This document shows positions 3,661 to 52,032 of a DNA stretch of 64,000 bases, piece by piece. Position 1 is the stretch's first letter. Every line of letters begins with the position of its first letter. This DNA comes from Minisyncoccota bacterium (lineage in GTDB: Bacteria > Patescibacteriota > Minisyncoccia > Minisyncoccales > GWA2-38-27). The notes under the pieces are model-generated. The model saw nothing but the letters and a program-made list of their open reading frames with translations, was not told the origin of the DNA and ran no database searches. The DNA is taken from the NCBI GenBank assembly GCA_028687715.1, contig JAQTZP010000004.1:25751-89750 (forward strand). The letters run 5' to 3'. The translations under genes were made by a program, and so were the position numbers.

Positions 3661-3821
3661 AGTGAAAGGAACAAAAAACCTCTTTTGAGGAAGAGGTCTC
3701 TTAAAACTATTTGAAATTTTAAACTACCTCTTCTTCAAAAGAAGCCTGATAATAATTATTTGGTTGATTAAAACTATATTCATTATAAAATATTAATAGA
3801 ACTATATAATTTGTGCCAAAC

Positions 3822-4382
3822 TTAACTGCCTAAAATCTTTAATGCTTCTTTTATCTTCTCATCAAGGTCTTCTATATCTTTTGGAATCCTATCTAGGGCA
3901 TCTTTGACTCTTGCCCTGGAAAAGCCCAGTCCGATTAAAGCATCTTCAGCTTCATCTCTTTTTTCTTCTTTTTTGGAAAATGACTTAATCCTTCCTGAAA
4001 GCTCCAGGATAATTGCCATCGCTTTCTTTTTGCCTATGCCCGGGATTCCGTAGAATAATCCTTCGTCTTGAGACAGAATCTTTTCTTTAATTTTATCCAA
4101 AGGACCTAAAGAAGAAATCTCAAGAGCCGCCTTGGGGCCTATACCTCTAATTTGCTCCAATATTTCAAAAAGCTCAAGTTCATCCTGAGTTAAAAATCCA
4201 TAAAGCTCTATTCCGTTTTCCCTTACATTGAGAAAACAAAAAACCTTAATCTCTTTATCGCTTATGGACGCTTGAGAGATTGACTTGCGTGATAAAAAAA
4301 CCTTATAGCCTATTCCGTTTGATTCTAAAACAATAAACTTCTCCTTTTTCAATACTATTTTTCCAGATATAGAATAAATCAT
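3822..4382 (-). CDS. ruvA: Holliday junction branch migration complex subunit RuvA
   Basis: 186 aa. N-terminal MIYSISGKI...GIGYKV OB-fold start, and HhH motifs (IRGIGPKAALEI, IPGIGKKKA). Confidence 0.85.
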   Translation of the reverse strand: MIYSISGKIVLKKEKFIVLESNGIGYKVFLSRKSISQASISDKEIKVFCFLNVRENGIELYGFLTQDELELFEILEQIRGIGPKAALEISSLGPLDKIKEKILSQDEGLFYGIPGIGKKKAMAIILELSGRIKSFSKKEEKRDEAEDALIGLGFSRARVKDALDRIPKDIEDLDEKIKEALKILGS

Positions 4383-11725: not shown

Positions 11726-13042
11726 ATGGCAGAAATCAAAAAGATTACCAAGGAAATATCTATTGATGGAATTTTAGCAGATGATATAAAAAAGGAAATA
11801 GAGAGTGTTTCTGATTTTAAAGAAAAGATTAAAAAAAGCCTAAATAAAAATGTAAGCGATTTGGTTGAAATTATTTTAACAGCATCTTTTTATCTTGACG
11901 CCTCTGATATTCATTTAGAGCCGAGCCAAAAAAAAACAGACTTTAGACTAAGAATAGACGGAGTGCTTCATGATGTATTCTCTTTTTCTCCAGATGAGTA
12001 TAAAAAGCTTCTCTCAAGAATTAAGCTTCTGTCAAAATTAAAGCTTAATATAACAGCCAAGCCCCAGGACGGCCGATTTTCTGTTTTAATAAAAGACGCT
12101 TCTATTGAAATAAGGACATCGTCAATACCGGCAGAGTACGGAGAATCCCTTGTTTTAAGAATCCTAAACCCGAAATGGGTGGTGGAAATGGAGGATTTGG
12201 GCTTAAGAAAAGATTTAATGGAACTATTTAAAAAGGAAATAGAAAAACCTAATGGGATGATAGTCTGCACCGGGCCTACCGGTTCTGGAAAAACAACAAC
12301 TCTCTATGCTTTTTTAAAGAAGATTTACGTTCCCGAGATAAAAATCATTACAATTGAAGACCCTATTGAATACCATCTAAAAGGAGTTTCTCAAACTCAG
12401 GTTGACTCCTCAAGAGGATATGATTTTGCCAACGGATTAAGGGCTATAGTCCGTCAGGATCCTGATGTTATTTTAGTCGGAGAAATAAGGGATTTAGAAA
12501 CCGCTCAAATATCTCTTCAAGCCGCCTTAACCGGACACCTTGTTTTAAGCACTATTCACACCAATGACGCCTCAGGCACAATATCAAGATTTCAAGCCTT
12601 AGGGGAAAAACCCTCAAACATTGCTCCTGCCTTAAATCTTGCCATAGGCCAAAGGCTGGTTAGAAAACTCTGTCCTAAATGCCAGGTATCTAAAAAAATC
12701 AAGCCTGATGATTTTAAGAAAATAAAGAACGAGCTGAAAAACCTTCCCAAGTCAGTAGAAATCCCGAAATTAAGCCCTTCTATGAAAATAAATTATGGGA
12801 AAGGGTGCAAATACTGCAATTTTACCGGATTTAAGGGCCGGGCAGGAATCTTTGAGGCTTTTTTGATTGACAATGAAATGGAGAAATTCATTCTGTCATC
12901 TCCTTCTATAAATGAAATCAAACAAAAAGCAGTTGAAAAAGGAATGGTTCTAATGAGGCAGGATGGGTTTATAAAAGTATTATCAGGCATAACCACAATA
13001 TCTGAAATAGAAAGAGTTACCAGCGAGGAAGAATCTTTGTAA
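11726..13042 (+). CDS. GspE/PilB-family secretion or type IV pilus ATPase (short form)
   Basis: 438 aa. Walker A GPTGSGKTTT, Walker B/Asp box DPDVILVGEIRD, His box GHLVLSTIHTN, and a tetracysteine CPKC...CKYC. Confidence 0.85.
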   Translation: MAEIKKITKEISIDGILADDIKKEIESVSDFKEKIKKSLNKNVSDLVEIILTASFYLDASDIHLEPSQKKTDFRLRIDGVLHDVFSFSPDEYKKLLSRIKLLSKLKLNITAKPQDGRFSVLIKDASIEIRTSSIPAEYGESLVLRILNPKWVVEMEDLGLRKDLMELFKKEIEKPNGMIVCTGPTGSGKTTTLYAFLKKIYVPEIKIITIEDPIEYHLKGVSQTQVDSSRGYDFANGLRAIVRQDPDVILVGEIRDLETAQISLQAALTGHLVLSTIHTNDASGTISRFQALGEKPSNIAPALNLAIGQRLVRKLCPKCQVSKKIKPDDFKKIKNELKNLPKSVEIPKLSPSMKINYGKGCKYCNFTGFKGRAGIFEAFLIDNEMEKFILSSPSINEIKQKAVEKGMVLMRQDGFIKVLSGITTISEIERVTSEEESL

Positions 13043-13053
13043 AATAAAAACAA

Positions 13054-13177
13054 CCCTTAAGGTTGGGGGGTTGACTAAAGTTTTAGGAACTAAAAGTTTA
13101 GAATTTTTACCAGGATAAGCCTCGCCGAAACCAAGCTGTCCATAGAATAAAAATTCCAAACCCCCCAACCCTAAGAG
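13054..13177. repeat. Long imperfect inverted repeat / candidate structured RNA in the pilB-like/ruvB spacer
   Basis: Outer arms GGTTGGGGGG (13061-13070) and CCCCCCAACC (13161-13170), extendable to 13054/13177. Inner arms GAATTTTTA (13101-13109) and TAAAAATTC (13148-13156). Two tandem 12-nt palindromes: CTAAAGTTTTAG (13075-13086) and CTAAAAGTTTAG (13090-13101). Confidence 0.6.
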
Positions 13178-13206
13178 CTGTTCAATAACTCTAATTCTAA
13201 TACTAT

Positions 13207-14241
13207 ATGAAAAATTTGTCAAGACCACCCTTTCTTGCCGGCTCTGACGCTCTGACCGAAGAAGAAAAAAACCTTGACCTTGCCTTAAGGCCTAAAAATT
13301 GGGACAGCTATATCGGCCAGGATAAGATTAAAAGAAATATAAAGATAATAATTGAAGCTGCCAAAAAGAGAAACGAAGCGCCTGAACATCTTCTTTTTTA
13401 CGGAAACAGCGGTCTGGGAAAAACAAGCCTGGCCCATCTCATTGCCAAAGAAACAGGCTCTAATATCCGAGTCACCTCGGGTCCGGTAATAGAAAAAGCA
13501 GGAGACCTTGCTGCGATTCTAACCAATCTTTCAGAAAAAGATATTCTTTTTATTGATGAACTTCACAGGCTTAATAAGCTCTGCGAGGAAATAATATATC
13601 CTGCAATGGAGGATTATAAGTTGAATATTGTACTGGGAAAAGGACCCATGGCAAGAACAATGGAATTAAAACTCCCTCATTTTACCATAATCGGAGCCAC
13701 AACAAGACTAGGCCTTATATCAGCCCCTTTAAGAAATAGGTTCGGAGCAACCTTTCAGCTTAGCTTTTACCAAAAAGAAGATATAGAGAAGATTATAATA
13801 AATTCAAGCAGAATTCTAAACATAAAAATAGAGCCTGAAGCAGTAAAGATTATCGCCAGACGCTCCAGGCTTACCCCTCGAGCCGCCAACAGGCTATTGA
13901 AAAGAGTGAGAGACTTTGCCCAGGTTGAAGGACAGGGAATAATTACTGCCCCAAACGCTGAAAAAGCTTTAACTCAACTGGAAATAGACCAAATGGGGCT
14001 TGAATCTGGAGACAGAAAAATCTTAGAAGCAATCATTGATAAGTTTCAAGGAGGTCCTGTCGGACTCCAAACCTTGGCGGCAGCCACTTCAGAAGAAGAA
14101 GGCACTATTTTAGATATCTATGAACCCTATCTAATGCAGATAGGCTTTATTGAAAGAACTCCCAGAGGAAGAATGGCTACTAAATATGCCTATGAGCATT
14201 TTGGGATAAAATACAAAGGCCCTCAAAACTCATTGATTTAA
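13207..14241 (+). CDS. ruvB: Holliday junction DNA helicase RuvB
   Basis: 344 aa. LRPKNWDSYIGQ start, Walker A GNSGLGKTSLA and Walker B FIDELHR. Confidence 0.92.
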   Translation: MKNLSRPPFLAGSDALTEEEKNLDLALRPKNWDSYIGQDKIKRNIKIIIEAAKKRNEAPEHLLFYGNSGLGKTSLAHLIAKETGSNIRVTSGPVIEKAGDLAAILTNLSEKDILFIDELHRLNKLCEEIIYPAMEDYKLNIVLGKGPMARTMELKLPHFTIIGATTRLGLISAPLRNRFGATFQLSFYQKEDIEKIIINSSRILNIKIEPEAVKIIARRSRLTPRAANRLLKRVRDFAQVEGQGIITAPNAEKALTQLEIDQMGLESGDRKILEAIIDKFQGGPVGLQTLAAATSEEEGTILDIYEPYLMQIGFIERTPRGRMATKYAYEHFGIKYKGPQNSLI

Positions 14242-39647: not shown

Positions 39648-39720
39648 GCCCTCATAGCTCAATTGGCAGAGCAGATCCCTCTTAAGGATAAGGTTCCAGG
39701 TTCGACTCCTGGTGGGGGCA
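39648..39720 (+). tRNA. tRNA-Lys (anticodon CTT)
   Basis: Manual cloverleaf: acceptor GCCCTCA/TGGGGGC, D arm GCTC/GAGC, anticodon loop CTCTTAA, T arm CCAGG-TTCGACT-CCTGG. 73 nt, no encoded CCA. Confidence 0.85.
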
Positions 39721-45951: not shown

Positions 45952-46024
45952 TGCCCCCGGAAGGATTCGAACCCTCAACTAGGCGTCCGAAGCGCCTCGT
46001 GTTGTCCAGTTATACCACAGGGGC
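45952..46024 (-). tRNA. tRNA-Arg (anticodon TCG)
   Basis: Manual cloverleaf on the minus strand: acceptor GCCCCTG/CGGGGGC, anticodon stem AGGCG/CGCCT with loop CTTCGGA, T arm GAGGG-TTCGAAT-CCTTC. 73 nt, no encoded CCA. Confidence 0.85.
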
Positions 46025-47561: not shown

Positions 47562-47633
47562 ACGGAGCGTAATATAACGGCAGTATACACCCTTCGGGAG
47601 GGTGCGGTCTGAGTTCGATTCTCAGCGCTCCGA
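47562..47633 (+). tRNA. tRNA-Pro (anticodon CGG)
   Basis: Manual cloverleaf: acceptor CGGAGCG/CGCTCCG (C1-G72, as in bacterial tRNA-Pro), anticodon stem CACCC/GGGTG with loop TTCGGGA, T arm CTGAG-TTCGATT-CTCAG. No encoded CCA. The 5' boundary is +/-1 nt. Confidence 0.8.
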
Positions 47634-51961: not shown

Positions 51962-52032
51962 GGGCCTTTAGTTTAACGGCAAAACACGGCATTCGCATTG
52001 CCGGGATGGCGGTTCAATTCCGCCCAGGTCCA
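51962..52032 (+). tRNA. tRNA-Ala (anticodon CGC)
   Basis: Manual cloverleaf: acceptor GGGCCTT/CAGGTCC with the G3:U70 alanine identity pair, anticodon stem CGGCA/TGCCG with loop TTCGCAT, T arm GGCGG-TTCAATT-CCGCC. No encoded CCA. Confidence 0.8.

Follow-up and report, generated by a model that had tools for sequence, protein, structure and literature searches.

What is the element that separates a pilB-like gene from ruvB in a Minisyncoccota bacterium (Patescibacteriota; Minisyncoccales), and on which strand does it work? The question is raised by nested inverted repeats at positions 13054-13177 of a 64,000-nucleotide (nt) stretch of contig JAQTZP010000004.1 (assembly GCA_028687715.1), which is called the window below. 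An earlier reading made without database searches (the sequence-only reading) had offered a small structured RNA, a compound terminator and a pair of operator sites in front of ruvB as explanations, and had pointed out a resemblance to the 4.5S RNA of the signal recognition particle (SRP). The sequences that it quoted lie where it placed them, and the first of its explanations is upheld by covariation in about 93 distinct homologues together with a promoter and a terminator of the element's own; what it did not recognise is that the RNA strand is the one opposite to pilB and ruvB. The repeats are part of a larger feature, which comprises a folded RNA at about 13044-13186 and a promoter reaching 13222. 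We put the probability of a minus-strand gene for a structured small RNA, opposite both neighbours, at roughly 0.9, a prediction that is based on sequence signals. As judged from its covariation and transcription signals, it is a well-supported new family of structured small RNA, found so far only in Parcubacteria-type Patescibacteria.

Covariation, strand and transcription signals

In 14 genome loci, an nhmmer search places the element immediately before ruvB. When these loci are aligned with MAFFT, without fitting to any structure, 42 consensus pairs result, and compensatory changes are seen in 32; 92.3% of the cells are paired, versus 76.5% in shuffles, and 33 pairs are changed on both sides, a number reached by none of 500 shuffles. 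The covariation score is 0.573, versus at most 0.20 when the partners are slid by 1-3 columns. At a larger scale, a covariance model (R1) gives full-length matches in 32 genome loci, all opposite ruvB, directly upstream of it and one in each, and a single match in the window. A scan of metagenome contigs with the RNA-sense pattern of the P3 core alone (see below) yields 120 loci, most of which are confirmed by R1 or by R2, the model of a second form. Altogether, the genomes and metagenomes of Patescibacteria yield about 160 homologues to the covariance models, a single one at each locus, and their length is 133-160 nt. In a model-fitted alignment of 93 distinct full-length sequences, 93.8% of the cells are paired, and 41 of the 43 pairs have changed in both partners, which no shuffle out of 500 equals. 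Since this alignment leans towards the structure, the MAFFT result is the cleaner test. Covariation in the homologous spacers, which the sequence-only reading had named as a check on a structured RNA, is strong.

Folding of both strands, another check named there, gives energies far beyond chance, with the minus strand folding better: the RNA of about 140 nt (13044..13186, minus) has an energy of -62.5 kcal/mol (z = -7.0; none of 200 shuffles equals it) and the plus strand one of -43.4 kcal/mol (z = -4.8). The covariance-model match at 13044-13185 on the minus strand scores 122.3 bits (E = 1.7e-29), and its plus-strand shadow 30.8 bits. When the alignments are read as minus-sense RNA, G·U cells outnumber A·C cells by 67 to 13 in the 14-sequence alignment and by 320 to 63 among the 93 sequences, where the paired fraction is 93.8% in the minus sense versus 87.3% in the plus sense. 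We assign the RNA to the minus strand because of this G·U excess, the G·U pair retained at the base of helix P2, and a promoter and terminators that are located on the same strand.

The promoter is close to the consensus. It consists of a -35 hexamer TTGACA (13217..13222, minus), which lies within ruvB codons 4-6 (AAT TTG TCA AGA, encoding N-L-S-R), a 17-nt spacer AATTTTTCATATAGTAT (13200..13216), which includes the reverse complement of the ruvB start codon, and a -10 hexamer TAGAAT (13194..13199). In a consensus scan of the window, this TTGACA-17-TAGAAT arrangement at 13222-13194 matches 11 of 12 consensus positions, and it predicts a transcription start at about 13186-13189. A strict TTGACA-N16-18-TAnnnT motif precedes the RNA in 72 of 92 distinct homologues, with a median distance of 12.5 nt from the -10 hexamer to model position 1.

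At the other end, a U-rich tail UUAUUUUA... (13036..13047, minus) follows directly past helix P1 and abuts the pilB stop codon (13040-13042, plus). The 3' strand of P1 and this tail form the intrinsic terminator of the small RNA, and a terminator scan reports a minus-strand stem followed by TTTTTATTTT at 13065-13051; it reports sites on the minus strand only and none on the plus strand. The positions of the promoter and of the stem with its T-run predict that the RNA runs from about 13186 to about 13044. Such a tail directly after P1 is found in at least 57 of the 92 homologues. Where it is missing, a separate RNA-strand hairpin with a U-run often takes its place, for example in L013, L006, L079 and the Moranbacteria-like (Moran-type) loci, although a strict automated criterion scored only 4 homologues for this arrangement. 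The idea of a compound terminator therefore survives only for the small RNA itself, as the 3' half of P1 with the U-run. As a terminator of pilB it fails, since the plus-strand hairpin is followed by CCCTAAGAGCTGTTCAATAAC, which contains no T-run.

The plus strand and the DNA itself were considered more generally, as a pilB terminator, a 5' leader of ruvB, a LexA-type operator pair, or a dispersed repeat of the miniature inverted-repeat transposable element (MITE) or repetitive extragenic palindrome (REP) type. The position directly before ruvB and the folding of the plus strand (z = -4.8) speak for such an element, whereas the lack of a plus-strand T-run, the wobble bias, the promoter and the terminators favour the minus strand. 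The operator pair suggested earlier for a damage-inducible ruvB would be of the SOS-box type; its two 12-mers, however, are not conserved as sequence among homologues, only their pairing being kept, and in the window they occur about as often as expected by chance (23 matches at 2 mismatches or fewer, 21 expected). A dispersed repeat was rejected because the element occurs once in the 64-kb window and once per related locus, in synteny, with no copy of its G-run in the window outside the element and no similar sequence in phage and plasmid collections. Taken as a whole, this group of explanations is very improbable.

Other candidates were rejected as well. A riboswitch or cis-acting leader would lie in front of a gene on its own strand; downstream on the minus strand there is only pilB antisense, beyond the terminator. 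An 81-amino-acid minus-strand open reading frame (ORF) at 12983-13228 has no Pfam match and begins upstream of the RNA promoter; in addition, indels among the homologues are not multiples of three, which counts against a coding reading. The properties by which genes for noncoding RNAs are generally recognised, namely compensatory changes above controls, a strand-specific wobble bias, and a promoter and terminator of their own, are all found here.

Architecture of the RNA and comparison with known families

The fold is a three-way junction of a helix P1, an arm P2-P3 with internal loops, and a hairpin P4 on the 3' side. P1 has 23 bp, formed by the 5' strand GAACAGCUCUUAGGGUUGGGGGG (13161..13183, minus), in which the inner UGGNGG is conserved, and the 3' strand CCCCCCAACCUUAAGGGUUGUUU (13048..13070, minus), which also serves as half of the terminator. 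The sequence-only reading had described an outer stem GGTTGGGGGG (13061-13070) / CCCCCCAACC (13161-13170); the stem is real, but its extension was put too short at about 15 bp, since the repeat finder gives arms of 24 nt (13049-13072 and 13159-13182). The outer part of P1 is free to vary and yet stays paired, and the inner UGGNGG/CCNCCA G-C clamp is conserved except at N, which covaries (A-U in 45 sequences, G-C in 44). All 22 modelled pairs of P1 show compensatory changes, and 95.5% of its cells are paired in the 93 sequences.

The 5' junction strand, J1/2, distinguishes two subtypes: it has 2-4 nt in the window subtype and 8-11 nt, U-rich, in the Staskawicz-like subtype. It is followed by P2, a helix of 10 bp that is A/U-rich in the window and whose 5' strand GGAAUUUUUA (13148..13157, minus) begins with a conserved G·U pair; the 3' strand, according to the model alignment, is UAAAAAUUCU (13100..13109, minus). 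All 10 pairs covary, and the basal G·U is retained in 76 of the 93 sequences. The inner stem of the sequence-only reading is present here as an inverted repeat at 13096-13109 / 13148-13161. Beyond P2 lies an asymmetric internal loop, in which the 5' side, about 6 nt long, varies and the 3' side keeps a "UC".

P3 is the module with the highest sequence conservation. In the window its arm reads GG-AC-AGCUU-G-GU[UUCG]GC-G-AGGCU-UAU-CC (13113..13141, minus; model pairs 58-59/99-100 and 62-69/88-95), and the consensus is GG-RUA ... UAUNCC-UC, which can also be written GG.UA ... UA..CCUC. A UNCG tetraloop caps the arm, as UUCG in the window, and L020 and L049 have longer hairpins instead. An AUG in P3 opens a 17-codon ORF, MDSLVSARLILVKILNF (13134-13084, minus). 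Since it has no Shine-Dalgarno (SD) motif and is not conserved, the AUG being absent by eye in L008 and L011, this ORF is probably not translated.

The hairpin P4, AAACUUUUAG-UUC-CUAAAACUUUAG (13075..13099, minus), carries a conserved UUCC/UCCCA motif in its loop. The two tandem 12-nt palindromes described earlier (13075-13086 and 13090-13101) do exist; because they are 92% complementary to each other with 3 nt between them, however, they are the arms of this one hairpin rather than independent palindromes. For the majority of the 93 homologues, folds of individual sequences predict a hairpin at the P4 position. The Staskawicz-like subtype has a 7-bp stem and a CCA triloop here, with the stem 100% paired in 40 distinct sequences and 4 covarying pairs; in the window subtype the hairpin is weaker, made of A-U pairs and with the loop GUUCCYA. 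RNAalifold found no consensus pair in a MAFFT alignment of the window-type P4 regions, which we ascribe to weak A-U helices whose register differs between sequences. Pairing of the P4 loop with the 5' strand of P2 (GGAA/UUCC or UGGG/CCCA), as a tertiary contact or a switch, is suggestive in some sequences; it fails in others, for example L161.

Moranbacteria-like loci contain the same P2-P3 core and P4 inside a four-way junction. In this form, which is present in L062 (for example at 3688-3832, minus), L076, L041 and others, P1 is CUGUAGAC/GUCUACAG, and an extra 5' hairpin has a loop, CUAUCUUUU, that is invariant in 16 of 16 aligned sequences. With R2, the model of this form, about 33 more genome loci are found in addition to metagenome loci, the RNA again lying on the strand opposite ruvB and upstream of it; the model cross-matches the three-way form weakly (L013, 38.8 bits). 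In many Moran-type loci, the promoter and P1 are separated by a leader hairpin of about 60 nt. Neither R1 nor R2 matches the RuvB loci from outside the candidate phyla radiation (CPR), the Microgenomates locus L078 or the Kerfeldbacteria locus L060.

No described family matches this structure. A whole-window scan with Rfam 15 gives no family at gathering score for the element; at E<=10 or E<=5, the element, seven homologous loci and one Moran-type locus yield only chance-level matches, such as those to rli32, FopS and mir-326, and 140 kb of related metagenome loci contain no Rfam family at all. The only gathering-level matches in the window are four transfer RNA genes, at 39648-39720, 47563-47633 and 51962-52032 on the plus strand and at 45952-46024 on the minus strand. 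Literature searches on 6S RNA, SRP RNA or structured RNAs in CPR bacteria found no description of such an RNA. The RNA resembles orphan RNAs of the raiA, OLE and HEARO type in being defined by covariation and in its conserved loops and restricted taxonomy. It differs from them in sequence and fold, in being absent from Rfam 15 and restricted to Patescibacteria, and in its tight linkage to ruvB and pilB.

A divergent SRP (4.5S) RNA was a candidate because it belongs to the same size class, has a long terminal helix, occurs in a single copy and is broadly conserved in a given lineage, and because the plus strand holds ACCAGG and a GAAA string. The RNA strand, however, is the minus strand, opposite to the one in which that resemblance had been noticed. 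In addition, the RNA branches in a three- or four-way junction, and its UNCG apex is variable and tolerates inserted hairpins. The GNAR loop and the AGCA motif, which the sequence-only reading had already failed to find, are indeed absent, as is the AGG loop motif, and no helix 8 motifs are present on either strand. RF00169 and RF01854 are unmatched both at gathering score and at E<=10. As a member of the SRP family the RNA is refuted, and we leave this explanation almost no weight.

Genomic setting and linkage to ruvB

The RNA lies between two genes of the opposite strand. At its 3' side, pilB (11726..13042, plus; Pfam T2SSE, E = 4.5e-112), which encodes a PilB-like ATPase, is convergent, and at its 5' side ruvB (13207..14241, plus; Pfam RuvB_N, AAA_lid_4 and RuvB_C) is divergent and is followed in the window by a gene for a lamin-tail-domain (LTD) protein. 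In a species-level genome collection, the closest relatives of this RuvB are only about 71% identical and come from Parcubacteria-type Patescibacteria (Staskawicz-, Nealson-, Gribaldo-, Wildermuth- and Moranbacteria). The order tsaE(-), pilB(+), RNA(-), ruvB(+), LTD(+) is widely retained.

Linkage to ruvB was counted in the 120 metagenome loci, which had been picked by the RNA pattern alone. The RNA is divergent from ruvB and 53-452 nt away from it in 76 loci, and ruvB is 912 nt away in 2 others; the contig is too short to judge in 17 loci, and in 25 there is space for ruvB and the gene is absent. In 11 ruvB-less loci that were examined (L087, L098, L099, L116, L117, L120, L121, L128, L138, L139 and L162), the gene that abuts the RNA promoter is the one found after ruvB in the window, for an LTD/ComEA-like (helix-hairpin-helix) membrane protein. 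Most of these proteins begin with M-x-N/I-L-S-R, the peptide encoded by the -35 region (L117 and L162 start otherwise). Some of the remaining ruvB-less loci may be chance matches to the pattern. As a group, pilB, ruvB and ComEA/LTD look like a DNA-uptake and recombination cluster.

The start codon of ruvB (13207-13209, plus) lies inside the promoter of the small RNA. Among 63 homologues, which include for example L004, L013, L011 and L012, the divergent ATG takes two registers: its A is 8 nt upstream of the -10 hexamer in 16, including the window (TTGACAAATTTTTCAT, M-x-N-L-S-R), and 17 nt upstream in 30 (TTGACAT = ATG TCA; M-S-S/R). These registers suggest an overlapping or bidirectional promoter and possibly a leaderless messenger RNA (mRNA) of ruvB. 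A canonical plus-strand promoter for ruvB was not found in the window; there is only a weak TTACCA-17-TAAAAT at 13017-13045 and a TCTAAT that overlaps the minus-strand -10 hexamer. About 30 bp of control DNA are common to the two divergent units. The mRNA of ruvB must therefore either start at an overlapping opposite promoter, with a short leader or none, or have a long 5' untranslated region antisense to the small RNA. A start without an SD motif is not unusual here, since most genes of the window lack one: of 37 long ORFs, only about 6 have an SD-like motif within 18 nt of the ATG. In this genome, translation seems to start as a rule without an SD motif, and perhaps often on leaderless mRNAs. 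Many ORFs of the window have TATAAT-like strings near the ATG.

Because the promoter of the RNA overlaps the start codon of ruvB, coupling to or interference with ruvB expression is expected. One explanation makes this the function: the element would act in cis, as an antisense or promoter-interference element that restrains ruvB or uncouples it from pilB, by promoter occlusion, by head-on collision with read-through polymerases, or through an RNA duplex cleaved by RNase III. The transcript is fully complementary to the pilB-ruvB spacer, a strong minus-strand promoter overlaps the ruvB start, and no plus-strand terminator follows pilB. The divergent arrangement at 53-452 nt in 76 of the 78 metagenome loci that hold ruvB, the location of the ATG within the promoter, in one of two discrete registers, in 46 of 63 homologues, and the LTD/ComEA-like gene that takes the place of a missing ruvB and keeps the M-x-N-L-S-R start point in the same direction. 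The arrangement resembles divergent overlapping promoters and cis-antisense RNAs in that the RNA promoter and a divergent gene start share the same 30 bp or so and the transcript is antisense to pilB-ruvB read-through. In those systems, however, the RNA fold is usually not conserved over comparable distances, whereas here the fold is the most strongly conserved property. A role purely in antisense or interference would give no reason for internal-loop nucleotides to be conserved, for 41 pairs to covary, or for G·U to be favoured on one strand across phylum-level divergence. The linkage is also incomplete, since up to 25 of the 120 loci have room yet no ruvB and the upstream neighbour differs in Moran-type loci. 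We consider a purely local role of this kind unlikely, though it is compatible with a role in trans: the shared promoter region probably couples the small RNA and ruvB in cis alongside any trans role.

In three loci (L152, L153 and L022), a second consensus promoter, TTGACA-N17-TATACT, lies within about 20 nt downstream of the small RNA on the same strand. It suggests another small transcription unit, and no Rfam family was found in this region of the three loci.

Candidate modes of action

A near-consensus promoter, protected and paired ends, helices of fixed length and variable sequence, and conserved internal loops combined with a dispensable apex and lineage-specific hairpins typically mark RNAs that work by means of their three-dimensional shape, in most cases together with a protein; antisense RNAs and DNA sites do not typically show these four properties. 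The new RNA may therefore act in trans through its fold as a protein-binding RNA, and not through DNA or a plus-strand mRNA; this is the most probable of the modes of action considered, and we give it slightly less than an even chance.

A trans-acting RNA might instead work by base pairing. In this explanation, the C-rich loop of P4 (UUCCUA or UCCCAG) would be the seed of a riboregulator that masks purine-rich ribosome-binding regions in the style of RsaE/RoxS or RNAIII. The loop motif is conserved while the stem covaries, and the promoter and terminator are stand-alone. The idea of an anti-SD seed is weakened, however, because so few long ORFs of the window (about 6 of 37) offer an SD-like substrate. 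Furthermore, the P4 loop is not conserved in the four-way variant, and the most conserved nucleotides lie in the internal loops of P3 rather than in an accessible seed. A riboregulator is accordingly an improbable explanation.

For the protein-binding RNA, the specific mechanism that fits best is a miniature decoy of the sigma-A RNA polymerase holoenzyme of the 6S type, which we propose only tentatively from the comparison that follows. P1 would be the downstream duplex and the template for a product RNA, which would read 5'-AAACCCCCCAACC... in this organism and be identical to the inner 3' strand of P1. The junction and P4 would correspond to the central bubble and its 3' hairpin in the 6S-1 RNA of Firmicutes, and P2-P3 would be the upstream arm, with its conserved loops about 11-22 bp from the junction, where a -35-like contact would be expected. 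Known 6S RNAs are rods with a central bubble and a typical length of about 200 nt; 6S-1 RNA of Firmicutes has a preformed hairpin on the 3' strand of its bubble, and a truncated 6S-1 RNA with short arms only still completes its cycle in vitro (PMC8876501).

The likeness to 6S RNA (ssrS; RF00013) extends to several features. Both are stand-alone and single-copy with a sigma-70-type promoter; the 5' and 3' ends lie in a long closing helix, with G-C pairs beside the centre; both have interruptions in the apical arm and a tip that varies. As in 6S-1 RNA, the centre is interrupted and its 3' strand carries a small conserved hairpin, here the covariation-backed P4. As regards the rod shape, two long arms are present; the 5' junction strand, which is open in a 6S rod, is U-rich and 8-11 nt long in the Staskawicz-like subtype but only 2-4 nt long in the window subtype, beside a paired P2.

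A number of observations weigh against this reading. At 133-160 nt, the RNA is short in comparison with the roughly 200 nt of a typical 6S RNA, and its centre is a closed three- or four-way junction, unlike the 6S bubble. The 6S model RF00013 is unmatched in the element, the seven loci and the Moran-type locus, under the gathering threshold and under the permissive ones (E<=10, E<=5) alike. Since J1/2 has only 2-4 nt and the adjoining P2 is paired with covariation, the window subtype has no preformed bubble, and in the four-way variant the strand that would be the template holds a stable hairpin, the one with the invariant loop. A collapse helix of the 6S type was looked for by eye and rejected: position 39 in P2 does not follow position 188 in P1. 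For these reasons (no model match, short length, closed 5' strand with paired P2, and the template-strand hairpin), the RNA is not filed as 6S RNA. Two points concern the RNA more generally. Its expression is predicted from transcription signals only. Moreover, in the Nealsonbacteria locus L059, pilB ends at 3968 and ruvB starts at 4001, and with a spacer of only 33 nt this locus must lack the RNA, an absence as compatible with an accessory RNA as with a core one. At L052:942-995 there is a short degenerate hairpin only. In view of these two loci, the RNA is not universal at the pilB-ruvB position.

Taken together, the observations can be read as an undescribed, lineage-wide RNA class of Patescibacteria with three-way and four-way members, hard-wired into the promoter of the pilB-ruvB-ComEA/LTD cluster. 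It would be either a miniaturised, branched, 6S-like RNA that sequesters polymerase, the CPR counterpart of a housekeeping regulatory RNA, or the RNA subunit of a ribonucleoprotein new to bacteria. In this full form the proposal is possible, and we hold it with reserve.

Much of bacterial diversity belongs to the Patescibacteria (CPR), whose genomes are tiny and in which, to our knowledge, almost no regulatory RNAs have been characterised. The position of a start codon at two fixed registers within a divergent promoter is a compact case of overlapping divergent transcription units. If the RNA is 6S-like, it would show how far a mimic of the open promoter can shrink and branch. A covariation-backed RNA that is kept across Parcubacteria-type lineages is likely to have a central role, and it offers a concrete experimental handle in CPR bacteria.

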